The notes beneath the pieces were generated by a model that worked only from the letters and a program-made list of their open reading frames with translations, was not told where the DNA came from and searched no databases. A program made the position numbers and the translations under genes. Shown piece after piece: positions 20,111-57,436 of a DNA stretch of 64,000 nt. This DNA comes from Squalus acanthias (taxonomy: Eukaryota). The DNA is taken from the NCBI GenBank assembly GCA_030390025.1, contig CM059432.1, forward strand, positions 98,830,001 to 98,894,000. Direction: 5' to 3'. Position 1 is the first letter of the stretch; every line of letters begins with the position of its first letter.

Positions 20111-20387
20111 TGGTTTTTTGTTCCCTTCAATTTTCTTCCATGATCTTTCCTCTCGTCTCTCCTGAAGATCTTGACTTCCTCGCTGGGATACATTTCCATC
20201 AGTGGCAGTGGTTCAGCGAGTGTCAGCAGGCTATGTAACCTGGACAACATCAAAGCCCAGAATGATCCTGCGCTCATCCTTTATCTATCCACCCAAATTT
20301 CCAGTAGGGGGTCAATAAATAGCAAGCAGGTATGAGAATCCTGACTGATGCGACCTACTTTGATCCATCCGGGGTACTGCGGGCAAT

Positions 20388-21942: not shown

Positions 21943-22240
21943 CAACAAAAACAACTTGTATTTATATAATGTAGTAAAACCTCCCAAGGCGCTTCACAGG
22001 AGCGTTATAAAACAAAATTTCACACCAAGCCACATAAGGAGAAATTAGGACAGATGACCAAAAGCTTGATCAAAGAGGTAGGTTTTAAGGAGCATCTTAA
22101 AGGAGGAAAGAGTGTTAGAGCGATTAAAATCAGGGGTGCTCAAGAGGGCAGAACTAAAGGAGCGCAGATAGCTCAGGGGGTTGTGGGGCTGGAGGAGATT
22201 ACAGAGATAGGGAGGGGCGATGCCATGGAGGGATTTGAAA
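21943..22240 (-). mobile_element. L2 3' fragment (copy 2: ~41417-41714)
   Basis: Homologous to the start of 14808-15530. Confidence 0.75.
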
Positions 22241-22526
22241 TACGAGCAGAATGTGCCCTCAAGGATTTCTCTCTGACATCAGTGAAATGTATCCTTTTCT
22301 ATTTGTTTCACTGAGATGTTAGGCAGCCAAAACATGGTGGAGGAGCTGTTTAAGATAGAATTATAATATTTTTTCCTACTAAGTTACTCATGAGATGCTA
22401 ATCGTGTTAAATATGCTTCCGCCAACAGTTTCCTTGTCCTTTCATGAAGCTGCTTGTTTTTGTTTTGTCACTTATTTTGGACCTGCTACTCATTTAAAGT
22501 GTTACCCATCCTCTAGAACAGAATAC

Positions 22527-23243
22527 GTCCACCTCCATAATATCGCCCATCACCACCAGTGTTCCCTGTAAGCTGCGCTTCGTTCTGCGCAGCCTGTTTC
22601 TTTCAATGCGCGGTCCCTTTAAATATCTGTGCATGCGCAGTATTTCCAATGTAAAAGCTTGTGAGTGGCCTACACAGGACCTTGCAGATCACTGCCCGGC
22701 CGCTTAGAGGGAACATTGGTCACCACCCCTGTCTCAGTCCGCTGCTGCTGAAATTCTCATCAATGCTTATGTTACCTCCAGACTCGACTATTCCAATGCT
22801 CTCCTGGCCTGCCTCCCACCTTTCACCCTCCATAAACTTGACCTCATGCAAAACTCTAGTGCTCGTATCCTAACGCTCAGCATGTCCTGTTCAACCATCA
22901 CCCCTGTGCTCGCCAACCTATATTGGCTCCTGGTCCAGTAAAGCATCAAATTTAAAATTCTTATTCTTGTTTTTAAATCCCTCCATGGCCTCATTCTTCC
23001 CTATCTCTGTAAACTCCTCCAGCCCTACATCCCTCCAAGATCTCTCTGCTCCTCTAATTCTGGCCTTTTGCTCATCCTTGATTTCCATCGCTCCACCATT
23101 GGTGGCCGTGCCTTCAGCTGCCTTGGCTTTCAGTTCTAGAATTTCCTCCCTAAACCCCTCTATCTCTCTTTCCTTCTTTCCTTCTTTTATCACACTCCTT
23201 AAAACCTACCTCTTTGACAAACTTTTTGGTCACCTGTCCTAAT
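22527..23243 (+). mobile_element. L2 3' fragment, interrupted by a hAT MITE and resuming after 28792 (copy 2: 42001-42717)
   Basis: TSRLDYSNALLA- and FKILILVFKSLHG-type L2 motifs. Confidence 0.8.
22557..22718. mobile_element. hAT-type MITE, 162 bp (copy 2: 42031-42192)
   Basis: TIRs CAGTGTTCCCTGTAAG / CTTAGAGGGAACATTG; 8-bp TSD ATCACCAC / GTCACCAC. Confidence 0.85.
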
Positions 23244-25469
23244 GGCTCAGAAATTGCTGGGAAAATAATGGGGAGTTTAATGGCGCATGCCGGTATTAGT
23301 GTGTAAACTGTCTAGCAATTTGTGGTGAGGAAGAGATAGCCCATGAGTTGCGAATCACCACAAATTGCTGGCGATTTGCGCCGCTCTGCCTTTAGCCTCA
23401 CAAAAACGGGAACTCGCTGTCAACCTCCTTGTAAGTTTTAAGAAATATCTGCATTTGTGTAGTAAATATGAATTAAACTCGCCACAGCAAGTTAGGGCTG
23501 ATACTTAACAGAGTAAGAACCCTTTTATTGACAACATTTATGTTCCTGCAATGCCACTCAACCTCTCTGGCCCAGAAAGGCAACAATTGAAACTGTGGAG
23601 TCTCATTTCTACAGGTAGTAAATTATTCTAAGAGGATTTTAAAATGTAAAATTTTAAAGTTAAAAAAAAATAACTTACTTTTCCTTTCTGTCTCTTTTTC
23701 TCTCTCTTGTAATCCAATTTTTCTTTCCCTCTCTTTATTTCTCTTCCTGTATCTAATTGGACTTTAATTCACCCTATTTCATAGAGTTATAGATTTATTC
23801 AGCACAGAAAGAGGCCCTTCGGCCCATCATATCCGCGCCAGCCATCAAGCCCTGTCTATTCTAATCCCATTTTCCAGCACTTGGTCCGTAGCCTTGTATG
23901 CTATGGCATTTCAAGTGCTCATCTAAATGCTTCTTGAATGTTGTGAGGGTGCCTGCCTCTACCACCCTTTCAGGCAGTGAATTCCAGATTCCAACCACAC
24001 TCTCGGTGAAAAGGTTTTTCCTCAAATCCCCTCTAAACCTCCTGCCCCTTATCTTGAAACTATGCCCCCTGGTTATTGACCCCTCTAGTAAGGGGAAAAG
24101 TTCCTTTCTATCTACCCTATCTATGCCCCTCATAATTTTGTACACCTCAATCAGGTCCCCCCTCAGCCTTCTCTGCTCTAAGGAAAACAACCCCAGCCTG
24201 TCCAGTCTCTCTTCATAGCTGAAGCACTCCAGCCCAGGTAACATCCTGATGAATCTCCTCTGCACCCTCTCCAATGCAATCACATCCTTCCTATAGTGTG
24301 GCGACCAGAACTGCACACAGTATTCCAGCTGTGGCCTAACTAGCATTTTGTACAGCTCCATCATAACCTCCCTGCTCTTATATTCTATGTCTCAGCTAAT
24401 GAAGGCAAGTATCCCATATGCCTTTTGAACCACCTTATCTACCTGTCCTGCTGCCTTCAGGGATCTATGTACATGCACACCAAGGTTCCTCTGATCCTCT
24501 GTCCTTCCTAGGGTCCTACCATTCATTGTGTATTCCCTTGCCTTGTTAGTCCTCCCAAAATGCATCACCTCACACTTTTCAGGGTTAAATTCCATTTGCC
24601 ACTGTTCTGCCCATCTGACCAACCCGTCTATATCGTCCTGTAGCCTGAGGCTTCCCTCCTCGCTATTTACCACTCCACCAATTTTCGTGTCATCTGGGAA
24701 CTTACTGATCATAGCTCATACATTCATATCTAAATCATTAATGTACACTACAAACAGCAAAGGACCCAGCACCGATCCCTGCAGTACACCACTGGACACA
24801 GGCTTCCAGTCACAAAAACAACCTTCGACCATCACCCTCTGCCTCCTGCCACTAAGCCAATTTTGGATTCAATGTGCCAAATTGCCCTGGATCCCATGGG
24901 CTCTTATCTTCTTGACCAGTCTCCCATGCGGGACTTTGTCAAGAGCCTTACTGAAGTCCATGTAGACTACATCAACTGCACTACACTCATCCACACACCT
25001 AGTCACCCCCTCGAAAAATTCAATCAAATTGGTTAGACATGATCTCCCCCTGACAAAGCCATGCTGACTATCCTTGATTAATCCTTGCCTCTCCAAGTGG
25101 AGACTAATTCTGTCCCTCAGAATTTTTTCCAATAATTTCCCTACCACTGATGTTAGGCTCACTGGCCTGTAATTCCCTGGTTTATCCCTACTACCCTTCT
25201 TAAATAATGGTACTACGTTAGCTATCCTCCAGTCCTCTGGCACCACCCCTGTGGCCAGAGAGGTTCTGAAAATCTGTGTCAGAGCCCCTGCAATCTCCTC
25301 CCTTGCCTCACACAGCAGCCTGGGATACATCTCATCTGGGCCTGGGGATTTATCCATTTTTAAGCCCGCTAAAACCGTTAGTACCTCCTCCTTCTCAATA
25401 TTAATTTGTTCAAGTATATCACAATCCCCCTGCCTGATTTCTATGCCTACATTGTCCTTCTCCATAGTG

Positions 25470-25748
25470 GCCATGATGCGGAGATGCCGGTGTTGGACTG
25501 GGGTGGACAAAAATGAGAAGTCGCACAACACCAGGTTATAGTCCAACAGTTTTATTTGAAATCACGAGCTTTCATAGCGCTGCTCCTTCATCAGGTAAAG
25601 TGAAGGAATACAAATCAGCAAAGCATATATATATGCTTTGCTGATTTGTATTCCTTCACTTTACCTGACAAAGGAGCAGCGCTCCGAAAGCTCGTGATTT
25701 CAAATAAAACTGTTGGACTATAACCTGGTGTTGTGCGACTTCTCATTT
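25470..25748. mobile_element. Penelope-type insertion: two termini inverted into a long palindrome, each with a hammerhead-like core
   Basis: 12-bp TSD TTCTCCATAGTG (25458-25469 / 25749-25760); palindrome 25509-25750; CTGANNA-A-GGAGC-AGC-GCTCC-GAAA core. Confidence 0.8.
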
Positions 25749-25942
25749 TTCTCCATAGTGAACACAGATGCAAAATATTCATTTAAAACCTCACCCACAT
25801 CTTCTGGCTCTACACACAGATTGCCACTTTGGTCCCTAATGGGCCCTACTCTTTCCCTGGTTATCCTCTTGCCCTTAATATACTTCTAAAACACCTTGGG
25901 ATTTTCCTTTATTTTGCCCGCCAGTGTTTTTTCATGTCCCCT

Positions 25943-27348
25943 TGTAAAGGAATAGCCATATTTCAGAAAAATACACCATCCTATGAACAGAATTCTGATT
26001 TTATTAAAACATGACAAACTGGGGTTAAAAATCTAAAAGCCTCAATGACACAAGCTGTAAATACAGGCTTCTGAGATAAGATGAAGTGTTAACACAAAAG
26101 CTGTAAACACCATACAAGCTTTTGAAATGGGAAATGGTTGTAAATACTAAGACAATGGCCTCATTGAAACAGATGGTTGTAGGTTCCAAGGAGTCTGCAG
26201 TTTGGAACCAACACAATAGCAATGCCCAAGTAAAGTGTTAAAAAATGACACCTTGAACAGAAAAACAGAACATTAAAAAACCATGTGCCTTTGTACAAGT
26301 AACATCAAATGAAACAGGAAACACGATTATAAATACAACCAATTGAAGTTGTAAAAGATACCTACAGAAGACTTTGAAAATATTACATCAATAGATGTAC
26401 CAAACAATCACATTGTTTATGTGTTGAACTTGGGACACAAGGAGACGAGAAGTCTGTAATACAAGCAGTTAAGCCAATATTAAGAATTGAATTGAAGACC
26501 TTTGAAAGAATGGCATCAAAGAGATAAATCTGTAATAACCATTTTATATGATAAGTTTTTGAAACACCTATACCGCAGACAGGATTCTAAAAGTTAACAG
26601 CTGAATTGACAGTAAGAATAGAAAAGAATTCAATTGAGAATGACTAAAGAAAATTAGCTTACATCAGCAGAAAACTTCAAAGGATAAGCCACTGCAAAAA
26701 AGGTATAAAAATAGAGCTTTTCAGATAGAGAGTCAGAAGTCACTGGAATGGGCCAAGTGATTCTCTCACTCTTCAGATGCAGGCTCTGTAAGTTTTTAAC
26801 TCTTTGAGTGTTGGGTAATCAAGGTATTTGATTTTGGTGGATATTCTGGATTAAGATTAAGTAGAAGTGTGGAAATGTAACTAAATTAAGATTTGAGAGT
26901 AAGGATCTCTGATAAGAAATGTAAGCTATTTGTATTTTGAACTGTTAAAGTTGCGATTGAATCAACAGCTGTTAGCTGAATGTCGGTTCTTTAATAAATC
27001 GATATATTTTTAGAATTATCTCACAGAGTAATTTTGTATCAACCTCGCAAACTCAATTTCTGTACACTCTTTTGTGAGGAATTGCAGAATTCTGGCGGGG
27101 GGGGGTTTCCAGACCCTCATAATATCCGGAAGGTTACAGTCTAGTTAAACTTATTAAAAGTGCTATCTGGAGGACGGTAACATCTTCAAGCCGTTCCTTT
27201 CCTTTAGGGAGAGGTAGTCTGACCTTTGGACCCAATTAAGCATTTCTAGGATTTGGCTACCGCTAACTTTAGTTGAAGGTGAACATCTGGGGAATACGCC
27301 TGATATGGGGTAGCCCGAAAATGGCTAGGACTAGTAATTATCCCTTCA
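25943..27348 (+). mobile_element. Solo LTR (~1.4 kb) (copy 2: 45417-46831)
   Basis: TG...CA termini; 4-bp TSD CCCT/CTCT; TATAAAA ~26704 and AATAAA ~26993; cleanly interrupts CR1 ORF2. Confidence 0.75.
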
Positions 27349-28816
27349 CTCTCTTCGCTCTCCTAATTTCTTTTTTAAGTGCCCCCCTATACTCCTCTAG
27401 GGCTTCCACTGTTTTTAGTCCTTTGTATCTGCCAAAAGCCTCCTTTTTTTCCTACTCCATTCTTGCATATCCCTTGACACTCAGGGTTCCCTGGGCTTGT
27501 TGGTCCCACCCTTGACCTTTATGGGAACATGTTGGCATTGTACTCTCTCTATTTCCTTTCTGAAAGACTCCCACTGCTCTGATGTGGATTTTCCTACAAG
27601 TAGCTTATTCCAATCCACTTTGGCCAGATCCTGCCTTATCATATTAAAATTTGCCTTCCCCCAATTTAGAACCTTTATTTCCAGTCCATCTTTGTCCTTT
27701 TCCATGACTACCTTAAATCTCACCGAATTATGGTCACTGTCACCAAAATGCTCTCCTACTGACACTTCTACCACTTGCTCGACTACTTTCCCTAGAATTA
27801 AGTCCAGTACCACCCCCTCTCTTGTAGGACTTTCTACATGCTGGCTCAAAAAGCTCTCTTGGATGCACTTTAAGAATTCCACACCCTCTAAGCCTTTCAC
27901 ACTCTGACTATCCCAGTTAATATTGGGGAAGTTGAAATCCCCTACTATTATTACCCTATTATTTCTACACTTCTCTGAGATTTTCCTACATAGCTGTTCC
28001 TCTCTCTCCCCCATACTGTTTGGGGGCCTATAGTACACTCCCAGCAAAGTGCTTACCCCCTTTTTGTTTTTAAGTTCTACCCATATGGCTCATTAGAGCA
28101 ACCTGCTAAGATATCATCCCTCCTTACAGCAGTAATTGGCTCCTTGATTAATATTGCAACACCCCCTCCTCTTTTACACCCCCCTCTGTCTCGCCTGAAG
28201 ATTCTATACCCCGGAATATTGAGCTGCCAGTCCTGCCCCTCCCTCAACCATCTCTCTGTGATAGCAACAATATCATACACCCATGTGTTCATCAACACCT
28301 TTAATTCATCTGCCTTACTCGCAAGACTTCTTGCATTAAAATAACTGCCATCCAGCCTTGCCATACTCCCTTGTGCCATTACATATTTGCTCTGCCTTCC
28401 AGGCTGACTTGGTTTTTCCTCTATATTTAGCTGTGCATCACCCCCTACTATAGCTCCACTCTGTATCCCATCCCTCTGCCAAGTATATATAGCGCATTTA
28501 ATGTAATAAAATGTCCCAAGATGCTTAACAAGAGTGATATCCTTTTCCTTTTCCATTATTCCTCTGTTTCTTTCCCTATCCGTAAATTTCATTGGTTAAG
28601 GAGATAGAATAATGGTCTCATCGTTGACCAAGCTCTCAGATGCCCCGTTGCTCTCACTAAGCCATTAATAGCTCGCACTTCCAGCAACTTGTGGCCCCCA
28701 AATTTTTTGAGCTGAAGGGTGAGAAAAAAATCTAACTGACAAGGCACACCGCTAGATCCCCCACTCTTGCAAAATTTTGCAAAATGTGGGCCAATATCTC
28801 TTTATGATAGTTATGA

Positions 28817-29155
28817 TTCCCTAAGCTCTGAAATTCCCTCCCTAAACCTCTCCGCCTCTCTACCTCTCCTTTTTTAAGATGCTCCTTAAAACCTACCTCT
28901 TTGATCAAGCTTTTGGTCATTTGTCCCGATATCTCCTTCTGTGGCTCAGTGTCAAAAATGTTTTTTATTGATATCACTCTTGTTAAGCATCTTGGGACAT
29001 TTTATTACATTAAATGCGCTATATAAATGTAAGTTGTTGCTGTTTGTGTTTTTATGTGGCTCGGTGTCAAATTTTGTTTGATAACGCTCCTGTGAAGTTC
29101 CTTGGGACATTTTACCATGTTAAAGGCGCTATATAAATGCAAGTTGTTTTTGTTG
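28817..29155 (+). mobile_element. Two tandem L2 3' tails
   Basis: GCGCTATATAAATG(T/C)AAGTTGTT tail occurs twice; homologous to the reverse complement of 14808-15030. Confidence 0.75.
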
Positions 29156-30573
29156 AATATCCAGTTCTAAACTTTCTTGTATCAAAATATGTTTCTTAGA
29201 TTCTCTGGGAAGAAATCTATTTGGAAACAAACTAATTAATGTGGCCTGGGACTCCTGACAAAAACCTTTAACATGCACAAATATAGTTTGTGCTTTCCTT
29301 TATATGACATTGACATGGTTCAAACAGTTTTGAAACCAACATATTCTTCAGTATTTGATCATTTATGTACATATTTATCATATAACCTTCAATCCCATAC
29401 TTAACTGGTATTAGTCCTGCTCTTAAATAAAAAGGCATTAACTGCTAAGTAGTGTTTGAAGATAAAGTCGTCATTTTCAGATTGAAGCATTATTTTATGA
29501 TAGTTAAGTGATGGCCAACAACCAGCTTGTAGGTCTTAAATATTACATTGTCATAACGGATTGCCAGCATTTCCATTTATTCATGAAACATGCATCAACA
29601 GCTAACTGAATGTTCACAATTCCCAAAGCCACATGCTACATTAATTAAATAGAGTTTTTATGTGCCTTACATTCATTTACTTTAACTGTCAATTATTCTC
29701 ACTAATGCAATTGAAGACACAGTGTAGCACATAAATATAATGTGTGAAATGTTGCAATCCCATGTAACTGAGATATTGGCAAAGAATCAAATTTGCTTGT
29801 GCCAGCTGATGGAATTGGTCCTATACGTCTTTTCAGAACCTGTGGTGCTAAAGCAGGGACCGAGGTACTGCTGTTGATTGTATTAATATCCTTCATGGAA
29901 AAGATTTCATTGGTAATGTTTAATTTGTTTCAATCAGCTTTGATTTTGATAATTACCCCTGAAATAATACCTTCACTTTCACTTTTGATTTATTTTTCCT
30001 GTCATTCTTTGAAAATGTCCATTTATAGCCCAGACCTGAATCTTTCCCTCAGCTCAATAATCTCCTTCACTGCCCCTAACTATCCTGAATTGCCTGTTCA
30101 TTTAAACACATACAGACCCACTTTTGATCATATACTCTCTCACAAGTATGAACTCTCAGTCCCAGCCTGCCCCATGCTTATTTGGACTCATATTGAAGGC
30201 AATTAGAACTTGCTAACTTTTTGCAAATGAATATAAAGTACATAAAACTCACCATACTTAGAACATTAATTATTTTAATTCTGTTTGCCCTTACATCAGA
30301 TAGTGAAATGGCATAAATAGACATTTTAGCAACAGCATTTTTCATTTATATTTATCAATATCAACCCTTAATCGGCTGGCAGTTTACAGAAACTCTTGTC
30401 TCCCTATTCCAATTGGTTTTATTTGTTTTTCACATGTGTGCTAAATGAACAGTAACATTGTTAAAATATTAATCTTGGATTTATTCCTTTTAAGATTTTA
30501 CTCCCCGCTGCCCTCCGCCACCAACACACTCCGCTGCCCCCCCTCCACCCCGCCAAATAGAGCGGTCTCTAAT

Positions 30574-30908
30574 AGGTGTCAGCCTTGACTCAGTGGTAGT
30601 ATTTTTGCATCTGAGTCAGATGGTTGTGGGTTCAAGTCCCACACCAGAGACTCAAGCACATAATCTAAGCTGACAATTCAGGGCAGTACTGAGGGATACT
30701 GCCGCATTGTCAGAGGTACCGTCTTTCCGTTGTGACGTAATACTATTTGCCTTCTCAGGTAGATGTAAAAGATCCCATGGCACTTTTTGATAAGAGCAGG
30801 GGAGTTCAACTCGGTGTCCTGACCAACATTTATCCCTTAACCAACATAACTAAAACAGATTATCAGGTCATTATCACTTTGCTGATTGTGGGGCTTGTGC
30901 AAACTGGT
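30574..30908 (+). mobile_element. tRNA-derived DeuSINE (SacSINE1/AmnSINE1-like) (copy 2: ~50057-50391)
   Basis: A box TGACTCAGTGG and B box GGTTCAAGTCC, followed by a Deu-domain-like GTAAAAGATCCCATGGCAC...AAGAGCAGGGGAG...ACAGATTATC. Confidence 0.7.
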
Positions 30909-30959
30909 AGTCATGGAGTCTTTGTGGAAGCTAACGGGAATGGTAGCATAGTAGTTATG

Positions 30960-31098
30960 ACGTTCTGACGAAAGGTCATCGACCTGAAACATTAACTCTG
31001 TTTCTCTCTTCACAGATGCTGCCTGACCTGCTGAGTATCTCCAGCATTTTCTGTTTTTATTTCAGATTTTCAGTATCTGCAGTATTTTCTTTTTGTTG
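30960..31098 (+). mobile_element. Penelope-type short terminal insertion with a minimal hammerhead core (copy 2: 50443-50581)
   Basis: 11-bp TSD TAGTAGTTATG (30949-30959 / 31099-31109); CTGACGA-A-AGGTC-ATC-GACCT-GAAA-CATTAAC-TC at 30965-30998. Confidence 0.75.
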
Positions 31099-33514
31099 TA
31101 GTAGTTATGCTACTGGACTAGTAAACCAAAGGCCTGGATGAAAGATCCACAGATGGGAATTCAAATCCCACCATGGCAGCTGGGGAATTTAAATTCAGTT
31201 AATTAAATTAATCTGGAATAAGAAGCTAGTATCAGTAATGGTGACCATGAAACTATCAGATTGTCACAAAAACCCATCTGGTTCACTAATGTCCTTTAGG
31301 GAAGGAAAGCTGCCGTCCTTACCTGGTCTGGTCTATATGTTACTCCAGACACACAGTAATATGGTTGACTCTTAACTGCCCTCTGAAATGGCCGAGCAAG
31401 CCACTCAGTGAGTATGACTATGCCAGGCTGTTGCTTGAGTAGCTACAAAAAGCAAGAATAAGAATAAAACCGGATGGACCACCCAGCATCACCAAGGCAC
31501 CAACTTCGGACACAAAAACGGCTCACCCAGCCCAGTCGACCCTGCAAAGTCCTCCTTACTAACATCTGGGGACTTGTGCCAAAATTGGGAGAGCTGTCCC
31601 ACAGACTAATCAAGCAACAGCCTGACATAGTCATACTCACAGAACTATACCTTTCAGCCAATGTCACAGGCTCCTCCATCACCATCCCTGTCCTGTACCA
31701 CCGGCAGGACAGACCCACAAGAGGTGGCAGCACAGTGGTATACAGTCGGGAAGGAGTGGCCCTGGGAGTCCTCAACATTTACTCCAGACCCCATGAAGTC
31801 TCATGGCTTCAGATGAAGCATGGGCAAGGAAACCTCCTGCTGATTACCACCTACCGCCCTCCCTCAGTGAATGAATCAGTACACCTCCATGTTGAACACC
31901 ACCTGGAAGAAGCACTGAGGGTAGCAAGGGCACAGAATGTACTCTGGGTGGGGGACTTCAAAGTCCATCACCAAGAGTGGCTTGGTAGCACCACTACTGA
32001 CCGAGCTGGCTGAGTCCTGAAGGACACAGCTGCCAGACTAGGACTGGTGAGAAAGCCAACACAAGGGAAAAACATACTTGACCTCATCCTCACCAATCTA
32101 TCTGTCGCAGATGCATCTGTCTATGACAGCATTGGTAGCAGTGACCACTGCACAGTCATTGTGGAGACAAAATCACGTCTTCACACGGAGGACACCCTCC
32201 ATCGTGTGTTGTGCTAAATGGAATAGATTCAGAACAGATCTAGCAGCTCAAAACTGGGCATCCATGAGGGGCTGTGGGCCATCAGCAGCAGCAGAATTGT
32301 ATTCCACCACAATCTGTAACCTCATGGCCCAGCACATCCCTCACTCTACCATTACCATGAAGCCAGGGGACCAACCCTGGTTCAATGAGGAGTGTCGAAG
32401 AGTATGCCAGGAGCAGTACCAGGCGTACCTAAAAATGAGGTGTGTAAGTATACACAGGCCCTTAATTTTTAATTTTGGCATATATTAAAATGTTTTGCCA
32501 GGCCAAAAGGTTTTTTCGAAGTGTAACAGACTGTCTTTCACTGATAAGTAGACATGGAATGTGCTTTGATGTGCTTTACTAAAAGACAGCAGACATTTGG
32601 GAGCAAATGTGCTTTCAAAAGGAACTGTTGTATTTGCAAGTTGCGTTGTGATGGAGATATTTCAAGAGCTGGGTGTTGGATAGTAGATACTGACAGAACA
32701 AATGGTTGTGGCTGCAGGGGGTATTCATAGACAACATAGATAAACAAACCCCCTTAGATTTGCAGACATTGGGCTCGATTTTGCCAGGCCCGAGGAGGCG
32801 GGAATGGAGGCGTGTGGGTTGTTAAAAATGCAAAAAATGGCAGGCGGGCCCGACCCCGCCTCCATCCCGCCTTCGAGCAATTTTCCCAAATGCGTGGTTT
32901 CTGATCCCGTCTCCGTCCCACCTCCAAGAGGCGGGATAGGCCCTTAAGGCCCTTAACAACCACTTAATTGCCTCTATAATCCCATTTTGAGAGGCCTTTC
33001 TGATTTTAAGACTTTTCCCACGTGATGCACGCCTCCTCTGAAACACGACGGTGAAACCTGGTGGTAGCACACTTGGATTGCTGACTACCAGCTGCAGGTC
33101 CACCATTAAGAAGGAGATTTGATCAATCATCATTCAGGGGGAACTTTTAGCAGTCATAACCATTGTTGTGGAAGTTTGGAGCCTGGAGTAGTAGTAGTAG
33201 TGGTGGTGGTGGTGGTAAAAAAAATCTGGGAGCAGACTTAGGTCTCCTGCTGCTCATTTTACCTCCAGGTCCCTCTCACAGCAAAGGCCAAAAGCTTCCC
33301 AATCTTTGCAGACCTTAAATGCAGCAGCAATGATGACATCATCAGAGGCGACTTTCAGACTGAAAAAACTAATTGGGTCATGGGTTCCCACATGCTGGAA
33401 CTCAATTGCCCAATTAGGGGAAAATCAAATAATTCTCCCACATCCAATTGGAGTTGGGTGGCTAACACGAAAAGTGGATGACACGACCCCAGCCCACCCC
33501 AATGACAAAATCGA

Positions 33515-35418
33515 AGCCCAGGCTGCAAGATTCTCAGTTCAGCTCAGCTCAGCTCAGTTCAGTTCAGTTCAGCTTGGTGCTTGGTGCTGTGTGAATGGGT
33601 GAGCTCCACACCCCGGCTGCTTGCGGGGAATGCTAGTGTGGAGGGCCCAGTGCAGAAGGCCCGGGGAGGAAAGGCTGTGAGATTCTCAACTCAGCTCAAC
33701 TCAGTGCTGTGTGAACGGGCTGCTCCACACCCCGGCTGCTCGCGGGGCATGCCGGTGCGGAGGGCCCGGTCAGAAGGCCCAAGGTGGAAGACCCGGAGGA
33801 GAGTGGCCTAGGCAGGAGGCCCAGCACGGAGAACCCCAGGCGGGGGGGCCCAGGGCGAGGCAGCTGGTCGGCAGAGGTGGAGTCGGGAGATGCGGTTGGT
33901 GAGCATTGCTGCACTGGTTCTAAAAGTTGCAGAATGATCTCGGGCCTGAATGAGTTCCAACGGCCCAGCATGTGCTCTGTCTGGCGGCAGCTGTGAGGCT
34001 TTTTCTTGGTCATGGGACCAGTTTATGCGTCGCCATATTGGCGGGGGAATGACAAACTGTTTCCATCTGTAATGTGGCGCGTGAGCGGTTACAAGATGGA
34101 AAATGTGAAGGGTTAAAAGACGGAAAATAAAAGGAAAGTAAAAGACAAAGCAAAGTAATATCGGTAAGGAATGATGAGTATTCTTTGATGGTTGGGTCCT
34201 GTGAGCGATAACAGCAAGCAGAAGAAGATTTGAGTGTTCGGTCTTTTACGGGATTTCAGGAAGTGGATGGCTTCTTTTTCCATGGAAGGGCTGAAGACTG
34301 TGGACAAGGACTATGACTTTACATGGTTCGACAACATCAAATGATATTCGTTAATGGATTGCCAATAGGACTGGCGTAGAACTGGTATTTAATTGTTTTG
34401 TTGGGAAGGTTTCAGGTTTTCTGTTTGAAAGCAGTTTACTTGAAGCTTAATTGATTTTCTGATAAGAACTGTGGGAATTTGCACATGGTGATGTATTGGT
34501 GGTTATGTAGGAATTTACTTTGAGGTTATTGTCTAGTGTTGGTGTGTTTGAAAAGATAAAGTAAATTAATATTGGTAATTTATTGAACGAACGGACGCTC
34601 GAGTGAACGAACGGATGAACGATTCGAACGAACGCATTCATGCATATTGGAACTTACACTCGATCAAACGAATGATCACTTGTGCAGTGATAGAATGAAC
34701 GATTCGCGCGAACGCACGCAGGCGCGCACTTAGACAAATGCTACGCACGCACGCATTCAGACATGCATATTGGAACTTACACTCGATCAAACGAACGACC
34801 TCATGGGGTAGTGGTCGAACGAACGATTCGCGCGAACGCACGCAGGCGCGCACTTAGACAAATGCTACGCACGCACGCATTCAGACATGCATATTGGAAC
34901 TTACACTCGATCAAACGAACGACCTCATGGGGTAGTGGTCGAACGAACGATTCGCGCGAACGCAAGCATGCACATTGGAACTTACACTCGAGTGAACGAA
35001 TGATCGCGTGGTGAACGATCAAACGAACGATAATCGAGCGAACGCATACAAGCGCGCACTTAGACAAATGATACGCACGCACGCACTCATACATACATAT
35101 TGGAACTTACGCTCAATTGAACGAACGAACGCTTGAATGAACGAACGAACAATTGAATGAATGATCAAATTATCGAACGAACAATGCCAGTAGGACTGGC
35201 GTAAAACGAGTTTTTTTTCTTGGTTTATTGGAATAAGTGTTATCTGTAGCATTTAATTGGATTATGATGGTGCTATGTGTTTGTACACTGTGGTGTTGAA
35301 ATGGTTTTTGTTTTATGTGGAGTTAACTTTGAGATTTATTATTTTAAATCTAAAAAGTTGTGTGATATTGTTTAAGAGTATTTGTACTGTAAACATTATT
35401 GATTATTTGTAAAAAAAA
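33515..35418 (+). mobile_element. Unclassified 1.9-kb poly(A)-tailed non-coding insert flanked by a 14-bp direct repeat (copy 2: 52998-54900)
   Basis: AATGACAAAATCGA at 33501-33514 and 35419-35432; A-run at 35411-35420; two ~150-bp GC-rich 5' monomers; T/G-rich 3' region. Confidence 0.55.
34585..35185 (+). repeat. CpG-rich tandem array, ~124-bp period, built on GAAC/GCAC motifs (copy 2: ~54067-54667)
   Basis: TGGAACTTAC(A/G)CTC at 34648, 34771, 34895, 34976 and 35101 (spacings 123, 124, 81, 125). Confidence 0.9.
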
Positions 35419-35949
35419 AATGACAAAATCGAAATCCATAAAGCTGTTTTTTAAGGCTTTATTGTTTATTGTGATCAAGGAATGAAAAGGTTTACTATGT
35501 AATTGATGAGTTGTATAAGTACTATTGTACTTGAATAAAAGATTAATGACAAAATCGAGCCCTCTGTGTCTACAACAAAACAGGCCACAAGGTTGTAGAA
35601 CGACTTTTGGCAGCTAAAGGGGAGGAGTCAAACCTTTGAAGTTCTGAAATACTGGATGCAAAGTAAGACGTGAAATGTGACCAAGTGGTTAACTGCCACT
35701 TTTGTAAACTTTTATGTGTGAATGAACAATTTTGGGCTTTGATAAAGGCAGCTAACGGATAGCCACACAGGATGTGTGAGTGTGAAAGTTTTACAGCTCA
35801 AACAACTTAGGTCGAATATTAAAAGAACATTTCACAATCTCTGAATGATTGATTTACTGAAAAAGGCAAGGACAACTGTATAAAAAACCAGTGACTAAAA
35901 ATATCAGCACTGCAGTCGGAAGGCGGGGCCTGGCTGATCATCCCAACTC

Positions 35950-36137
35950 GAAGAGCTGCAGTCGGAAGGCGAAAAGCTGCAGTCGGAAGGCGAAGAGCTG
36001 CAGTCGGAAGGCGAAGAGCTGCGGTCGGAAGGCGAAGAGCTGCGGTCGGAAGGCGAAGAGCTGCAGTCGGAAGGCGAAGAGCTGCAGTCGGAAGGCGAAG
36101 AGCTGCAGTCGGAAGGCGAAGAGCTGCAGTCGGAAGG
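35950..36137 (+). repeat. 21-bp minisatellite GAAGAGCTGCAGTCGGAAGGC x ~9 inside the LTR (copy 2: 55432-55619)
   Basis: Directly visible near-perfect tandem copies. Confidence 0.95.
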
Positions 36138-37914
36138 ACGTGGCCTACAATCAATGCTGGACTGATAATCTGCGGGTGGTTGTATGTATGATTTCCTGTA
36201 ACATTATTGGTGTGCTGCTCAAACAGTGGTTGGGGTTTTGAACCTGTCTTGGGAACAATAAAATATTAAAGACAGAACCCGTGTGTCTGGTGTAATTTCT
36301 CATTTGTCTCAAGTCCGAACTCTATAACCTGTTGGACGGGGTGAGGGGCAATTCCGCTCGTCCTACATGTGCCAACCTGGGGAAGCTGCAACACAGGACT
36401 ACATGCATGCTAAACAGCAGAAGCAGCATGCTATAGACAGAGATAAGCGATACCACAATCAACAGATCAGATCAAAGCTCTGCAGACCTGTCATATCCAG
36501 TCGTGAATGGTGGTGGACAATTAAACAACTAATGGTAGGAGGAGGCTACATGAATATCCCCATCCTCAATGATGGCAGAGTCCAGCACGCCCGTGCAAAA
36601 GACAAGGCTGAAGCATTTGCAACCAGCTTCAGCCAGAAGTGCCAAGTGGATGATCCATATCAGCTTCCTCTTGAGGACCCCGCCATCACAGAAGCCAGTC
36701 TTCAGCCAATTCGAATCACTCCACACCAACCTCAATACAGCCTTGGTCCAAGCATGGACAAAGGAGCTGAATTCCAGAGGTGAGGTGAAAGTGAATGCCC
36801 TTGACATCAAGGCAGCATTTGACGGAGTGTGGCATCAAGGAGCCCTAGTAAAATTGAAGTCAATGGGAATCGGGGGGGAAAACTCTCCACTGGCTGGAGT
36901 CATACCTAGCACAAAGGAAGATGGTTGTGGTGATTGAAGGTCAATCATCACAGCCCCAGGACATCGCTGCAGGAGTTCCTCAAGGCAGTGTCCTAGGCCC
37001 AACCATCTTCAGCTGCTTCATCAATGACCTTCCCTCCAACATAAGGTCAGAAATGGGGATGTTCGCTGATGACTGCACAGTGTTCACTTCCATTCGCAAC
37101 TCCTCAGATAATATAGCAGTCCATGCCCGCATGCAACAAGAACTGGATGACGTTCAGGCTTGGGCTGATAAGTGGAGGTAACATTTGCACCACAGAAGTG
37201 CCAAGCAATGACTATCTCCAACAAGCGAGAGTCTAAACACCGCCCCTTGACATTCAATGGCATTACCATCACCAAATCCCCCACCATCAACATCCTGGGG
37301 GTCACCATTGACCAGAAACTTAACTGGACCAGCCACATAAATACTGTGGCAACAAGAGCAGGTCAGAGGCTAGGTATTCTGTGGTGAGTGTCTCACCTCC
37401 TGACTCCCCAAAGCCTTTCCACCATCTACAAGGCACAAGTAAGGAGTGTGATGGAATACTCTCCACTTGCCTGGATGAGTGCAGTTCCAACACCATTCAA
37501 GAAGCTCAACATCATCCAGGACAAAGCAACCCATTTGATTGGCATCCTTTCTACCACCTTAAACATTCACTCCTTCCACCACCGGCGTACCGTGGCTGCA
37601 GTGTGTACCATCTACAAGATGCACTGCAGCAACTCGCCAAGGCTTCGTCGGCAGCACCTCCCGAACCCGCGACCTCTTCCACCTAGAAGGACAAGAGCAG
37701 CAGACGCATGGGAACACCACCACCTCCAAGTTCCCCTCCAAGTCACACATCATCCTTACTTAGAAGTGTATCACCGATCCTTCATCGTCGCTGGGGCAAA
37801 ATCCTGGAGTTCCCTACCTAACAGCACTGTGGGAGTACCTTCACCACACGGACTGCAGCGGCTCACCACCACCTTCTCAAGGGCAATTAGGGATGGGCAA
37901 TAAATGCTGGCCTT

Positions 37915-40900
37915 GCCTGCTACATTTACCACATCATATCTCAAATTACTCACATACTGTATCCTAAAAAGTTATTTTCTGAAAGAAATCTATCTAATGT
38001 GCAAAGCTAGACAGTTGTCTCCCCTCTACCATGCTTTTTAAAATTTAATTATCAATTCAACAAATTTCCAGTTTTTATATTTGTTAATATCTGGCAATAC
38101 CTGTCCGTCCTCTCAAATCCACAAATAATCTGAGGTAGCAACTGTTAAGAAAACCCCTTCCCATGAAAAATGAGAACTGCACATAAAAAAACCAAAGAAC
38201 CATAGCAAGTCCAGTTAGATCGCATGAAGCGCAGTGACACTTTTAAAGTAATCAAATAAATGTGATGGAGAAGCCTATTAGTCTATAAGCACTGACGGGG
38301 GAAAAAAGTCCTCTTATATGATTGGTCCCTTTTACACACAATGGGGCCAATTTTGATATTACCCCTTTCATTCGGCAAGAGGCAGGCAGAGTGAGCCTGC
38401 TGCCCACACGATGAAAGTGATTGGAGATTGCCAGGCGTCATTGCCATATTCACACCGAGCTGCCCATGCATTCAGAGCAGCTCACCATTGGAGGTAGGAG
38501 TTGAGGGAATTCCACAAATTGCTGCAAGGAGCCGAGCGGTCGTGGAGAGGCAATCATGGGGCGGGGGCCTGCTGAGGTTCGGGAATTGGCCAGGTACTTC
38601 ATGTACAGCCAGGTGGAGCCACGTTTGTGGAACAGACTCCAGCAGCCCTTTAAGGACAGCATGGCATAGTCTTCCCCTTGGTACTTGAAAATTGCATTGA
38701 GTTTCTATTGGCATTTTAGGGCCTCGATTTGCACTGTATAACAAAGCAACTGTCTGTTTCTGCTGGGCACCTTAGCCTCCTATTTGAAAGTCCCAGTCAA
38801 AATAGTAGGTGGAACAATGGTGGGATTAGTGCAATTTTTGAGTACACTATCGTCCCATTCCCACCTGAAACCGGGGATGAAAATCAGAGCCATGGAGTTT
38901 CAACGAGATGGAATACTGCACATTATGGGAACACTGAAAAAAACGCTACAAAATATCAAAGAACTAAAATCAAAACTTCACCACTGTACAAGCTGTGCAA
39001 CGCAAAGTTAGGTCACTTCGTAAAACCGTGTCTGAGATGGTTTGCTTCTTGCTGACAGAACATTTTCCCTCAAAATTGTCAATTCTATTCAGCACAGAGA
39101 AAAGTCCCATTGGGAGAATTGGCTACTTTTTCAGCAATCACACAGAAACGGATGCAACGACTCTGGTGGGGGAATAGTTCCTCTACCTTTGTCTGCTCAC
39201 TGAATCCACCTCCTGCACAGTATCAAGAATTTCCATATCAGTCAGCAATCGAGATGTCAGGATATCAACTTCAACAATGGATCCAAAACTCAAGTCTTTT
39301 GGCAGTTACAAAAGGGGAGTCACGTACTCAACAAAGCTCGTTGCTTCAGAATTGACCATGAGTGCCTGTGTGGGACCCTGGACTATTTCAGATACAGCTG
39401 CTGGTGGCATTAGTTTACAGTGCCAGAAACAGTTGGCAATAGATTTGCTTTCAGCTCCTCCTATGATAAATGGATTTTGTAGATTATCTGCAGATAATCA
39501 ATCAAAATGGTACACGCGTAGCAATAACATTTTGCACCAAACATTTATTCTAGCGATGTTAAACTTCTGCATCACCACTTTCGTTGGTTTTTTGTTCCCT
39601 TCAATTTTCTTCCATGATCTTTCCTCTCGTCTCTCCTGAAGATCTTGACTTCCTCGCTGGGATACATTTCCATCAGTGGCAGTGGTTCAGCGAGTGTCAG
39701 CAGGCTATGTAACCTGGACAACATCAAAGCCCAGAATGATCCTGCGCTCATCCTTTATCTATCCACCCAAATTTCCAGTAGGGGGTCAATAAATAGCAAG
39801 CAGGTATGAGAATCCTGACTGATGCGACCTACTTTGATCCATCCGGGGTACTGCGGGCAATTACATAGGATATACAGCACAGAAACAGGCCATTCGGCCC
39901 AACCAGCCCATGCCAGTGTTTATGCTCCACTTGAGCCTCCTCCTGTCTTTCTTCATCTAAATCTAAATCTATCAGCATAACCCTCTGTTCCCTTTTCCTT
40001 CATATGCTTGTCTAGCCTCCCCTTAAATGCATCTATACTATTCGCTTCAACCACTCCCTGTGGTAGCGAGTTCCACATTCTCACCACTCTTTGGGTAAAG
40101 AAGTTTCTTCTGAATTCCCTATTGGATTTCTTGGTGACTATCCTATATTGATGGCCTCTAGTTATGCTCTTCCCCACAAGTGGAAACATCATTTCTGTAT
40201 CCACTTTATCAAAATTTTTCATAATTTTAAAGGCCTCTATTAGGTCACCACTCAGCCTTCTTTTTTCTCTCACTGCTGGCCCGGCTAAAATAAATTAATG
40301 TTCTTAATGTGAGCCATCACCAGATATCGTTCAATACCTTCGCTTCAGCCTGAATTTAATACTTAGTTCCATATGATAGAAACAATATAAATCTGAAGGG
40401 TTTTTGCTGAGAGACAAAGACAGCAAAGGACATGCCCGGCTAATCCCAAAAACTTCAGTAAAATAATTTACAAGACCTAGAGGAATGAAGGAGATATTTC
40501 AGCAGTTGAAGCAATAAATGTGATCTGCATTAACTTAAACTCATGGTATTGCAGGACTTTAATGGAATGTTTAACATTTGATATTTTGTGGATACAATTT
40601 GCATCTTAATATTTAATCTTCATAGTTTAATGCATAATATTTGTGAGGTAATGTTTATTGCATAAAGACTAGCAATTAGTATTTAATGCATTAGTATTTA
40701 AGAAGGTTTACTGGTTAATATTTAATATTATTCAATATTTGATGACTTATTTTTAATATTTAATACAAAGCTTTAGGTCATTTCAGCTAACTATTTAAGA
40801 TATAGTAAGAGAGCATTATTCAACTTCTGTAATTCAAAACTAACAAAATCATAGAAAAATGTGTAGATTCTGAAATTGCAATTTCATTATCTGGTATATA

Positions 40901-43900
40901 ATTATACAGATTCAGCCTGTGGGCCACTAATTGGCCCCCCTAACTATCTGGATATGATCATCTATCACATTGCATGCTTTTGGTTACATTCCTTTTCCAG
41001 TAATTGAGGATATTTGCTCCTAACATCATTTTACGACATCGGCGAGTGATTTTCTTTCGCTCTATTTCATCTACTTATGGTAATGGGTCTTGGTAATTTC
41101 TCAGATAACAAAAAAAATGTTGTTAGAGGAAGGTATAAAATAAGGAAAACCAGCTCCCAAAGAGTGTTTACACAGACTTAGTTCTGAGTAGAGACCCTAA
41201 GTTCTCACACAAGCTAAAAGATAGAAATGGAACTGTGCTTCTCATATTCTGTCACATCTGTAAGGCTGCTCAATGTAATCAAAATAAAACATTCTCTCTT
41301 TTTGTCTTGCCAGTGTGGCAAGACAAATTGTAGGCACTGGAGGATTAAATAAGTGATATTGGCAGAGATTATGAAAAGGTGATGTAAGGAATATGTGAGG
41401 ATTTCCCTACTTAATACAACAAAAACAACTTGTATTTATATAATGTAGTAAAACCTCCCAAGGCGCTTCACAGGAGCGTTATAAAACAAAATTTCACACC
41501 AAGCCACATAAGGAGAAATTAGGACAGATGACCAAAAGCTTGATCAAAGAGGTAGGTTTTAAGGAGCATCTTAAAGGAGGAAAGAGTGTTAGAGCGATTA
41601 AAATCAGGGGTGCTCAAGAGGGCAGAACTAAAGGAGCGCAGATAGCTCAGGGGGTTGTGGGGCTGGAGGAGATTACAGAGATAGGGAGGGGCGATGCCAT
41701 GGAGGGATTTGAAATACGAGCAGAATGTGCCCTCAAGGATTTCTCTCTGACATCAGTGAAATGTATCCTTTTCTATTTGTTTCACTGAGATGTTAGGCAG
41801 CCAAAACATGGTGGAGGAGCTGTTTAAGATAGAATTATAATATTTTTTCCTACTAAGTTACTCATGAGATGCTAATCGTGTTAAATATGCTTCCGCCAAC
41901 AGTTTCCTTGTCCTTTCATGAAGCTGCTTGTTTTTGTTTTGTCACTTATTTTGGACCTGCTACTCATTTAAAGTGTTACCCATCCTCTAGAACAGAATAC
42001 GTCCACCTCCATAATATCGCCCATCACCACCAGTGTTCCCTGTAAGCTGCGCTTCGTTCTGCGCAGCCTGTTTCTTTCAATGCGCGGTCCCTTTAAATAT
42101 CTGTGCATGCGCAGTATTTCCAATGTAAAAGCTTGTGAGTGGCCTACACAGGACCTTGCAGATCACTGCCCGGCCGCTTAGAGGGAACATTGGTCACCAC
42201 CCCTGTCTCAGTCCGCTGCTGCTGAAATTCTCATCAATGCTTATGTTACCTCCAGACTCGACTATTCCAATGCTCTCCTGGCCTGCCTCCCACCTTTCAC
42301 CCTCCATAAACTTGACCTCATGCAAAACTCTAGTGCTCGTATCCTAACGCTCAGCATGTCCTGTTCAACCATCACCCCTGTGCTCGCCAACCTATATTGG
42401 CTCCTGGTCCAGTAAAGCATCAAATTTAAAATTCTTATTCTTGTTTTTAAATCCCTCCATGGCCTCATTCTTCCCTATCTCTGTAAACTCCTCCAGCCCT
42501 ACATCCCTCCAAGATCTCTCTGCTCCTCTAATTCTGGCCTTTTGCTCATCCTTGATTTCCATCGCTCCACCATTGGTGGCCGTGCCTTCAGCTGCCTTGG
42601 CTTTCAGTTCTAGAATTTCCTCCCTAAACCCCTCTATCTCTCTTTCCTTCTTTCCTTCTTTTATCACACTCCTTAAAACCTACCTCTTTGACAAACTTTT
42701 TGGTCACCTGTCCTAATGGCTCAGAAATTGCTGGGAAAATAATGGGGAGTTTAATGGCGCATGCCGGTATTAGTGTGTAAACTGTCTAGCAATTTGTGGT
42801 GAGGAAGAGATAGCCCATGAGTTGCGAATCACCACAAATTGCTGGCGATTTGCGCCGCTCTGCCTTTAGCCTCACAAAAACGGGAACTCGCTGTCAACCT
42901 CCTTGTAAGTTTTAAGAAATATCTGCATTTGTGTAGTAAATATGAATTAAACTCGCCACAGCAAGTTAGGGCTGATACTTAACAGAGTAAGAACCCTTTT
43001 ATTGACAACATTTATGTTCCTGCAATGCCACTCAACCTCTCTGGCCCAGAAAGGCAACAATTGAAACTGTGGAGTCTCATTTCTACAGGTAGTAAATTAT
43101 TCTAAGAGGATTTTAAAATGTAAAATTTTAAAGTTAAAAAAAAATAACTTACTTTTCCTTTCTGTCTCTTTTTCTCTCTCTTGTAATCCAATTTTTCTTT
43201 CCCTCTCTTTATTTCTCTTCCTGTATCTAATTGGACTTTAATTCACCCTATTTCATAGAGTTATAGATTTATTCAGCACAGAAAGAGGCCCTTCGGCCCA
43301 TCATATCCGCGCCAGCCATCAAGCCCTGTCTATTCTAATCCCATTTTCCAGCACTTGGTCCGTAGCCTTGTATGCTATGGCATTTCAAGTGCTCATCTAA
43401 ATGCTTCTTGAATGTTGTGAGGGTGCCTGCCTCTACCACCCTTTCAGGCAGTGAATTCCAGATTCCAACCACACTCTCGGTGAAAAGGTTTTTCCTCAAA
43501 TCCCCTCTAAACCTCCTGCCCCTTATCTTGAAACTATGCCCCCTGGTTATTGACCCCTCTAGTAAGGGGAAAAGTTCCTTTCTATCTACCCTATCTATGC
43601 CCCTCATAATTTTGTACACCTCAATCAGGTCCCCCCTCAGCCTTCTCTGCTCTAAGGAAAACAACCCCAGCCTGTCCAGTCTCTCTTCATAGCTGAAGCA
43701 CTCCAGCCCAGGTAACATCCTGATGAATCTCCTCTGCACCCTCTCCAATGCAATCACATCCTTCCTATAGTGTGGCGACCAGAACTGCACACAGTATTCC
43801 AGCTGTGGCCTAACTAGCATTTTGTACAGCTCCATCATAACCTCCCTGCTCTTATATTCTATGTCTCAGCTAATGAAGGCAAGTATCCCATATGCCTTTT

Positions 43901-57399: not shown

Positions 57400-57436
57400 A
57401 GCGATGCCCACATCCCATAAAAACAAATTAAAAAAA

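Follow-up and report, generated by a model that had tools for sequence, protein, structure and literature searches.

The window analyzed here, 64,000 nucleotides of Squalus acanthias DNA, contains a composite of a MITE and pieces of a retroposon that occurs there in two versions (subfamilies). As the explanation that we consider likely, pieces of both subfamilies entered a Harbinger-type MITE within the inner part of its right TIR, probably by TPRT with Tx1 machinery and probably under a weak favor for this site. This explanation rests on the dispersal of the retroposon, its ~14-bp TSDs, the lack of an ORF, the presence of different RNAs at one nick, and the rebuilding of the MITE end.

All parts of the composite lie on the plus strand. 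The left TIR, GGGCTCGATTTTG, occupies 32771-32783 and is preceded by ATT (32768-32770); the MITE body (subfamily A, ~750 bp), as delimited by genome copies, extends from 32771 to the end of the first 14-mer at 33514. This 14-mer, AATGACAAAATCGA, is present exactly three times, at 33501, 35419, and 35545, as the initial annotation had stated. Copy 1 (33501-33514) serves as the 5' TSD. Only the last copy continues into GCCC (35545-35562, followed by TCT), which yields a complete right end that complements the left TIR at 32771; the 14-bp duplication rebuilds the MITE right end. The 3-bp flanks of this MITE copy are unequal (ATT left, TCT right). A 5-nt leader remnant, AGCCC, is found at 33515-33519 and is followed by the non-coding main-subfamily retroposon (33520-35409), assigned by subfamily divergence, free of Pfam and Rfam families and missing its own last ~140 nt. 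Its 5' CTCAG microsatellite and ~120-bp GC-rich monomers (33533-33789) form a putative promoter region, and an internal minisatellite block of 124-bp units and GAAC-rich repeats (34584-35185) differs among copies. The 1.9-kb piece terminates in a T and 10 A (35410-35420) with no AATAAA just upstream. The second 14-mer (35419-35432) stands in for ~27-31 nt present in both subfamilies, and the 112-bp piece that follows (35433-35544) represents the 3' end of the C-type, or sister, subfamily; it contains AATAAA at 35534-35539 and terminates in AATAAAAGATT.

Results showed that the 1.9-kb piece is 97% identical to the main subfamily and the 112-bp piece 99% identical to the sister subfamily. Positions 33800-34580 differ by 2.8-3.2% from the main type and by 11.9% from the C-type, while the 112-bp piece shows 1 difference in 108 positions from the C-type copy L177 and 1 in 112 from L152, versus 10-11% from the main type. 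Since the two pieces derive from two subfamilies, the data support two retro-events at this locus, in keeping with the initial annotation's impression that the site was hit twice. Allowing up to two mismatches, AATGACAAAATCGA has six matches in the window (shuffle mean 0.45; none of 100 shuffles reached six). The remaining three (52984, 54901, and 55027) lie inside a 19.5-kb tandem duplicate, 18441-37920 being repeated as 37915-57402 with 99.9% identity, so that the second copy of the whole composite (52254-55044, plus strand) is not an independent event. This duplication was absent from the initial annotation.

The 14-mer belongs to a Harbinger-type MITE of ~750 bp and forms the inner portion of its right TIR, where the initial annotation had placed it. 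A genome search returned 4766 candidates, and all 40 scored copies were 94-100% identical over about positions 1-748. Empty MITEs are common: 27 of 30 fetched copies are empty and 632 exact empty right ends were counted. Among the empty copies, identical 3-bp flanks occur in 21 of the 26 with an intact right end (the end is broken in 1 of 27), and these flanks show a palindromic preference. PIF/Harbinger elements are described as having short TIRs, ~15 bp long, and TSDs of 3 bp (PMC9710019). By its TIR length and 3-bp TSD, the MITE would be of PIF/Harbinger type, with other 3-bp-TSD superfamilies possible as well. In PIF/Harbinger systems, an autonomous element with the same TIRs encodes a Harbinger transposase and a Myb/SANT protein. 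At L178, L179, and L190, the same retroposon is preceded by the end of a sister MITE, ...AAAATCCAGCCC-AGG. The AGCCC at 33515-33519 was likely carried over from such a sister (subfamily B) end, and the extra A at 33515, taken in the initial annotation as part of a variant TIR at 33501-33519, is likely the start of this leader.

The retroposon is ~2 kb long, non-coding, and present in more than 900 copies across the genome; its 3' end was found at least 931 times in exact form, compared with two matches for the reversed control. In a sample of the first 30 copies by coordinate, 27 have unrelated flanks and three end in the TIR (L126, L139, and L144). Truncation at the 5' end is variable and the 3' end fixed, most of the 30 copies spanning 60-700 bp. 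TSDs of at least 10 bp were called in 22 of 30 copies (median 14 bp) and no TSD in five; three copies are longer than the 1.45-kb flank examined, and a call of 34 nt at L121 is an artefact caused by a local repeat. Because of this 5' truncation with a fixed 3' end, the ~14-bp TSDs, the A-rich or tagged tail, and the lack of an ORF, the element is a non-autonomous non-LTR retroposon and likely a product of TPRT, as had been proposed for the 1.9-kb piece.

In a check of coding capacity, eight of 31 frames of at least 50 aa were scanned and matched no Pfam family at cut-off, nor did a 292-aa antisense frame in L275. There was no Tx1-ORF2 match of 38% or more within the window, and an ORF with APE endonuclease and RT was not found in the retroposon, which was therefore rejected as a Tx1-clade LINE in its own right. 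Its identity as a classical SINE or SINEU was likewise rejected for want of an RNA-gene-derived head: with tRNA, 5S, 7SL, U1, and U2 in view, just two Rfam matches were obtained (E 0.65 and 0.99), both far under the gathering scores. No long copy joining the retroposon 3' end to an RT ORF was seen among 40 scored candidates or within 1.5-kb flanks. Although we found no published description of the retroposon in the literature, it may be catalogued in Repbase or Dfam. Contigs of four sequencing runs from other organisms cover parts of it and were not used as evidence; among those listed, none crosses the MITE-retroposon junction, and the listing named no RNA run that contains the retroposon.

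In contrast to the 632 empty exact ends, 15 TIR ends are altered, and all 15 are retro-inserts at the same nick. L239 is an intact MITE with AAT/AAT flanks holding a fragment of a Tx1 ferritin tail between AATGACAAAATCG copies; L245 is a 5'-truncated main-type copy whose tail tag is unrelated to the TIR; and L236, identical with L177, is a full-length C-type with its own 5' end. In addition, L192 is truncated at 35392 and has an exact TSD; L189 carries retroposon and ferritin tail at the nick; and L187 is a tandem insert. In L188, the nick lies 11 nt upstream, in MITE-B, and the MITE-B junction was seen in 8 of 20 rows. L180 and L103 are perhaps truncated TIR hits but could be deletions between 14-mers; L293 and L296 were rejected as TIR inserts. 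For 1300 inserts and 4766 ends, the expected number of TIR hits is 0.0008 at random and 0.02-0.09 when only motif-bearing sites are counted. At least seven TIR events look independent versus fewer than 0.1 expected, the count being a reading of junctions and the Poisson figure derived from rough inputs. Independent 5'-truncated inserts are also above chance, albeit in small numbers (L245, L192, L239, and perhaps L103 and L180). Window-type inserts occupy at least three MITE haplotype classes that exist empty too, and none of 99 distinct 3' flanks, a sample enriched for composites, enters the MITE beyond its last ~30 bp. The weak preference of the retroposon for the TIR site is real.

The insertion machinery was probably that of a Tx1 LINE, judging from a ferritin-tailed family (Pfam Ferritin) that is contiguous with Tx1 ORF2 in L225. 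The ORF2 of L223 is 46% identical to Xenopus Tx1 ORF2 over residues 1-1292 (RT part, 60%); both the L223 and L225 copies contain stops. An interpretation of "Family Y" as cellular ferritin retrocopies was rejected, since Tx1 ORF2 lies directly upstream and an in-frame stop is common to the copies. The ferritin-tailed family has a median TSD of 13 (called in 13 of 29 copies), and TSD medians of 14, 13, and 15 point to a common insertion signature. It forms chimeras with the retroposon, or neighbors it, at L067, L189, L218, and L299, and it shares the target, L239 and L189 being at the same TIR nick. None of 22 tested Tx1-tail copies ends in the TIR, i.e., a full-length Tx1 was not found there. 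The retroposon gave no DNA alignment longer than 18 nt with two long Tx1 copies (13-18-nt matches, with only the terminal AATAAAAAGA alike), making the Tx1 partner circumstantial. Thus, of the initial annotation's proposal that Tx1-like machinery acts on the TIR, the part that holds is a site hit above chance and by a Tx1-clade family as well, but a shared tail was not found.

Tails provide a further record of insertion. The TSD start follows the RNA tail: in a Tx1 family with a GGACC tail, 10 of 13 TSDs begin with ACC, whereas AA is the usual start for poly(A)-tailed copies. Where an A-run stands between tag and target, the tags agree with sequences that flank resident copies. In the mechanism we propose, a loosely specific endonuclease would make ~14-nt staggered cuts at pyrimidine/AA-type sites and cut the TIR above its share. 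With the poly(A) signal placed last in the element, transcripts would take up the first few bases of the flank as a tag of their source; the last bases of the RNA might then pair with the nicked strand, so that the tag would bias the next target. TIR-resident copies could be transcribed from inside the MITE; their RNA would then be bounded on either side by target sequence, making it easier to re-insert at the ends of other MITEs. Some full-length composites may also be copied as DNA by transposase. More speculatively, the two elements might be partners in both directions, Tx1 cutting the TIR and the duplication rebuilding its end while the retroposon rides the MITE as DNA and borrows its promoter. 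An equally tentative part of the same reading is that a source copy writes its landing site into the RNA tail, which would amount to heritable, RNA-encoded retargeting with the enzyme unchanged.

The initial annotation had proposed a site-specific retroelement, and strict specificity like that of Tx1L in Tx1D would fit the single nick shared by 15 of 15 altered ends. For this family, however, it is refuted, since 27 of the 30 sampled copies lie elsewhere, and off-target sites match the 22-nt TIR site in 9.2 letters on average compared with 8.8 for shuffled sequence (best 12/22). Furthermore, only 20 tail-TIR junctions stand against at least 931 tails, a rough ratio given that the search patterns differ, and just 1 of 15 altered ends is Tx1-derived, making an unseen, TIR-confined autonomous family unlikely. 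A preference made by RNA alone, in which an endonuclease with no liking for the site made a chance first insertion and TIR-carrying transcripts then paired with other TIRs, is improbable, but it accounts for several observations. Dispersed copies (L080, L091, L120, and others) end in AATGAC or in the whole 14-mer and an A-run; among 100 listed 5' junctions, 88 carry a MITE-derived leader, which is no longer than 29-45 bp in 7 of 19 fetched; inserts at the TIR (L016, L014, L185, L186, and L234) have tagged tails of varying length; and L1 is described as choosing targets in a pairing-dependent manner (PMC4014453). Yet the ferritin-tail fragments L239/L189, the C-type L177, and the foreign-tagged L245 reached the same nick without a TIR-derived tail.

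Slightly less improbable, but still unlikely, is a history of 2-4 chance insertions followed by hitchhiking, the composites being copied by transposase and varied by deletion, slippage, or gene conversion between 14-mers. For plain full-length copies, hitchhiking probably holds in part: composites L006, L016, L018, and L022 keep both TIRs with mostly matching 3-bp flanks, and 11 of 15 altered TIR ends are full-length, whereas among 27 dispersed copies only one exceeds 1.45 kb, an excess that suggests composite copying and fewer independent hits. The AU test is compatible with a single origin of the MITE parts in window-type composites (p = 0.127; L176, a long, interrupted row, was removed beforehand), and MITE and insert parts are similarly diverged (p = 0.14 at AT sites and p = 0.04 at GC sites, with a single ill-fitting row responsible for the latter value). 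The trees of MITE parts (52 rows) and inserts (36 rows) are star-like. Nevertheless, L239, L245, L177, L188, L189, and the MITE-B junction differ in RNA, tag, or nick and are not mutual DNA copies, several MITE haplotypes are filled, and the expectation is ~0.02 even for the two hits of the ferritin-tailed family. The related suggestion that the segments are a constant internal part of one DNA transposon fails as an origin, although composites, once formed, may have been copied as DNA. A likelier alternative, with odds somewhat short of even, concerns the middle 14-mer only: a full-length, L177-like C-type may have been hit at its TT/AATCC site by a main-type RNA ending in a TIR tag and have lost its upstream part to replacement, leaving the 112 bp, or a single event may have joined both pieces by a template switch. 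The two pieces are nearly colinear (gap of ~27-31 nt, with the L176 row disregarded in the alignment), other copies (L299 and L089) entered a related 3' end at this very position, and a template-switch chimera within one TSD exists (L067). On the other hand, a MITE with the 112-bp piece only, as a plain double hit predicts, exists at one locus (L180, with a tagged tail), and two retro-events with TIR sequence are needed in every version.

The preferred explanation, weakly favored insertion by Tx1 machinery, has its closest known case in the crocodilian SINEU/Tx1-Mar system. According to Kojima (2015, PMC4494074), SINEU-1, -2, and -3 and Tx1-Mar LINEs of crocodilians sit in Mariner-N4_AMi, and 90%, 23%, and 13% of near-full-length SINEU copies prefer one site. 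As described there, SINEU and our retroposon are alike in being non-autonomous, in preferring, to differing degrees, a single site of a DNA transposon that is itself non-autonomous, in tandem inserts that sandwich a TSD, and in 5' extensions taken from the host transposon; in both, a Tx1 driver is deduced from the shared target and truncated copies test hitchhiking. Unlike SINEU, the retroposon measures ~2 kb, lacks a head of U1/U2 or any other Rfam type, ends at a poly(A) signal with read-through tags, shows a weaker preference (3/30, with only a handful of truncated hits), and targets the TIR itself instead of an internal site. A Harbinger-targeting Tx1 family such as Tx1-9_AMi shares the preference of Tx1 machinery for a Harbinger-type transposon, but it is described as autonomous and at an internal site, whereas the right TIR is occupied in our case by a non-coding element and a Tx1 fragment, and duplication restores the end. 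Xenopus laevis Tx1L sits in Tx1D, a non-autonomous piggyBac (PMC4494074, PMC1950540); both cases nest a retroelement in a DNA transposon, and the ORF2 of the candidate driver is a close relative (46% over 1292 residues). However, the Tx1L endonuclease is reported to nick almost only its target, whereas about nine in ten copies or more are elsewhere here. In L1 3' transduction, a terminal poly(A) signal lets the flank travel along. Target choice by human L1 ("snap-velcro" priming) needs RNA-target pairing besides a nick (PMC4014453); unlike L1 as described there, many retroposon copies were primed by a carried flank without an A-tail, and each source copy would set its own bias.

Tx1 systems are already known from frogs and crocodiles to nest in other transposons, and the present case is a weak form of this habit. 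What is new is an element and a target, the TIR of a Harbinger-type MITE, caught while the preference is weak and leaky. Annotators should enter the MITE and the retroposon of the 2.8-kb unit separately rather than treat the whole as one DNA transposon. Source tags render the pedigree of copies readable, and the family is thus a natural test of RNA-target pairing versus endonuclease in site choice and of how strict specificity might begin.

An exact search confirmed the three positions reported in the initial annotation for the 14-mer AATGACAAAATCGA, the inner right terminal inverted repeat (TIR) of the MITE: 33501, 35419, and 35545; shuffled sequences gave a mean of 0.45 matches at ≤2 mismatches and never reached six. 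Three further copies lie within a 19.5-kb head-to-tail duplication (18441-37920 = 37915-57402, 99.9% identity), and therefore the window contains a single event present twice. The duplication is either very recent or an assembly artefact. The MITE extends from its left TIR, starting at 32771, to the regenerated right end, finishing at 35562. Its 3-bp flanks disagree at two of three bases (ATT, 32768-32770; TCT, 35563-35565) and each matches the flank preference on its own; this copy is possibly a recombinant of two insertions. The window also contains a near-perfect 252-bp palindrome (96-98%; 25504-25755 and 44978-45229), a 239-bp element bounded by 38-nt inverted repeats (92%; 31405-31643) that is probably another MITE, and a 21-bp unit repeated nine times with 97% similarity (35949-36137).

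Using 32772-33519 as the query, 4766 candidate matches were obtained in the 3.7-Gb genome, and the 40 that were scored had identities of 94-100%. Among 30 copies fetched, 27 were empty and three were filled, two of these being the window's own. In 21 of 26 empty MITEs with an intact right end the two 3-bp flanks were identical, and the bases surrounding them showed a palindromic preference. Short TIRs and a 3-bp target site duplication (TSD) are PIF/Harbinger traits (PMC9710019), and this MITE would fit such an assignment. In its sister subfamily, MITE-B, the end reads ...ATCAAAATCCAGCCC, the window's copy being MITE-A.

The inserted element is a retroposon with copies dispersed through the genome. 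Its exact 19-nt 3'-end pattern had 931 genome matches, compared to 2 for a control, and this is a lower bound since the pattern misses tails with a shorter A-run, including the window's. Among the first 30 copies by coordinate (contigs C1 and C2), TSDs of at least 10 were called in 22 (median 14); 3 extended beyond the flank and 5 had no TSD call. Only 3 of the 30 ended in the TIR, while the other 27 lay at unrelated flanks, most being short and 5'-truncated. Off-target sites matched the 22-nt TIR site at a mean of 9.23 letters (maximum 12; shuffled, 8.76), a score equalled by 7 of 200 shuffles, and had in common only a loose pyrimidine/AA start. Given the unrelated flanks and this weak likeness, strict site specificity fails, and the initial proposal of a site-specific retroelement was not borne out. 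Neither an ORF nor an RNA-gene head was found in the element.

Parts of the element are also represented in contigs of four other organisms (runs X1, X2, X9, and X11), mostly at 90-99%, which makes it likely that the family extends beyond the S. acanthias genome. The beginning of its AT-rich 3' block is duplicated internally (34360-34404 and 35185-35229), and an antisense frame (33808-34310, minus strand), interrupted in the window but uninterrupted over 200-290 codons in several copies (loci L274 and L275), had no Pfam match. Reverse nesting was also seen, with another 3-bp-TSD element at a common spot, element position 35338, in L102 and L107/L185, and a MITE-B at element position 34315 in L174. 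A large fraction of the full-length copies bearing a MITE-derived 5' leader occurs in one amplified context, often in tandem arrays, with a GC-rich stretch carrying GCGCAGGCGC/GCATGCGC motifs downstream of the copy (L020, L023-L029, L273, L303-L305, and numerous small contigs); L273 terminates in a C2H2 zinc-finger-like frame. These copies likely spread with duplicated gene clusters.

The two inserted pieces belong to different subfamilies. The 112-bp piece (35433-35544) differs from C-type copies at 1/108 and 1/112 positions and from main-type copies by 10-11%, whereas the upstream piece differs from main-type by 2-3% and from C-type by 9-12%; both subfamilies have other sequence in place of the window's middle 14-mer. 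In L177, a MITE holds a full-length C-type insert, complete with the insert's own 5' end, at the window's nick, and L180 is a MITE holding the 112 bp only. Together, these observations indicate that two retro-events are recorded, and to that extent the double hit initially proposed stands. Successive insertion is one possible route to it, as are replacement of a longer C-type insert and a template switch.

Exact empty right ends numbered 632, and 15 ends were altered in two upstream bases. All 15 were retro-inserts at one common nick. Ten were full-length window-type rows (2 of them this window's), one was a full-length C-type, and the remaining four were short. On our reading, in which events are independent if not derivable from one another by DNA copying or deletion, independent TIR insertions number 7-8: full-length C-type L177, the main-type insert in MITE-B (junction common to 8/20 rows), the 1.9-kb piece in the window, L188 (with its nick displaced 11 nt upstream), L189 (main-type, then ferritin tail), L245 (truncated, with a foreign tag), L239 (ferritin-tail fragment alone), and probably L192 (truncated at 35392). 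Additional events may be represented by five full-length copies with tags, by L103 and L180, and by the tandem L187. Repeated entry is favored by the occurrence of window-type inserts across three or more MITE haplotype classes that are also present empty. In contrast, the full-length share (11/15 altered ends versus 1/27 dispersed copies) speaks against many independent events, as does a single origin of the 12 window-type MITE parts, which was not rejected (p-AU 0.127). From rough inputs of ~1300 inserts and 4766 ends, 0.0008 TIR insertions would be expected for random targets and 0.02-0.09 for insertion restricted to motif sites; the TIR is struck above chance. None of 99 distinct 3' flanks (123 tails at 120 loci, a composite-enriched sample) entered the MITE interior, to which only chance matches of 11-15 nt, away from the junction, were seen.

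The last feature of the element is AATAAA, and many copies continue with a few flank bases from a resident copy, an A-run, and their own TSD. These tags were AATGAC or the entire 14-mer (L080, L091, L120, and L132), GAACCATG (L147, from arrays like L273), CAAC.. (L102 and L127, like L274), and CTCC(AGTC) (L071, L072, and L134, like L275). Copies without an A-run join the target via several bases common to tail and target. TSDs of poly(A)-tailed copies mostly start with AA, and for a Tx1 family whose tail ends in GGACC, with 13 TSDs called across 22 loci, 10 start with ACC. Such tracking of tails fits the pairing-dependent priming described for L1 (PMC4014453). At 5' junctions, the 14-mer plus a non-G base had 129 matches, with an AGCCC-AGG leader in 88 of the 100 listed; upstream of the leader, 12 of 19 fetched loci had a long MITE, which was reduced to 29-45 bp in the remaining 7. 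Such leaders make a transcription start within the MITE likely, and AGCCC would indicate insertion into MITE-B first and MITE-A later.

The foreign tail of L189 (355 candidates) is ferritin-derived and lies downstream of a Tx1 ORF2 end. Against Xenopus Tx1 ORF2, L223 aligned over residues 1-1292 (46%) and L225 over 371-1212, reaching the ferritin tail; the RT part of the Tx1 copy is 60% identical to Xenopus Tx1, with RVT_1 present and zf-RVT slightly below cut-off. The ferritin-tailed family (median TSD 13; 13/29 called) uses the same TIR nick as the element (L239 and L189) and is joined to or neighbors it in L067, L218, and L299. However, the element had no alignable DNA in common with the Tx1 copies L223 and L225, and 0 of 22 plain Tx1 tail copies ended in the TIR, which leaves the link only probable. 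The L1/Tx1-like machinery initially proposed is retained in weaker form: the driver is probably a Tx1 LINE, and a family other than the ferritin-tailed one could fill that role. In the ferritin-tailed Tx1 subfamily (L195, L224, L225, and L239) the ferritin mRNA end carries an in-frame stop, and in L254 and L255 a plain Tx1 3' fragment with a 12-bp TSD lies within the ferritin tail.

Kojima (2015; PMC4494074) describes crocodilian SINEU families favoring Mariner-N4_AMi (90%, 23%, and 13%), with tandem stacks around the TSD and host-derived 5' extensions, and linked to Tx1-Mar through their common target; Tx1-9_AMi favors Harbinger transposons. The logic equals that of the shark element, which works like SINEU-2, yet is no SINEU, being without an snRNA head, and differs from a Tx1 LINE in having no ORF. 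Compared with the crocodilian system so described, the shark target is the TIR itself, whose end is rebuilt, the preference is weak, and read-through tags record target choice and may steer it. No description of the element was found in the literature, Repbase and Dfam lying outside this comparison. The locus is real, with a targeting logic already known from crocodilian SINEU/Tx1-Mar in an apparently undescribed element; a bolder reading, doubtful at present, is that of a hitchhiking partnership with RNA-encoded retargeting.
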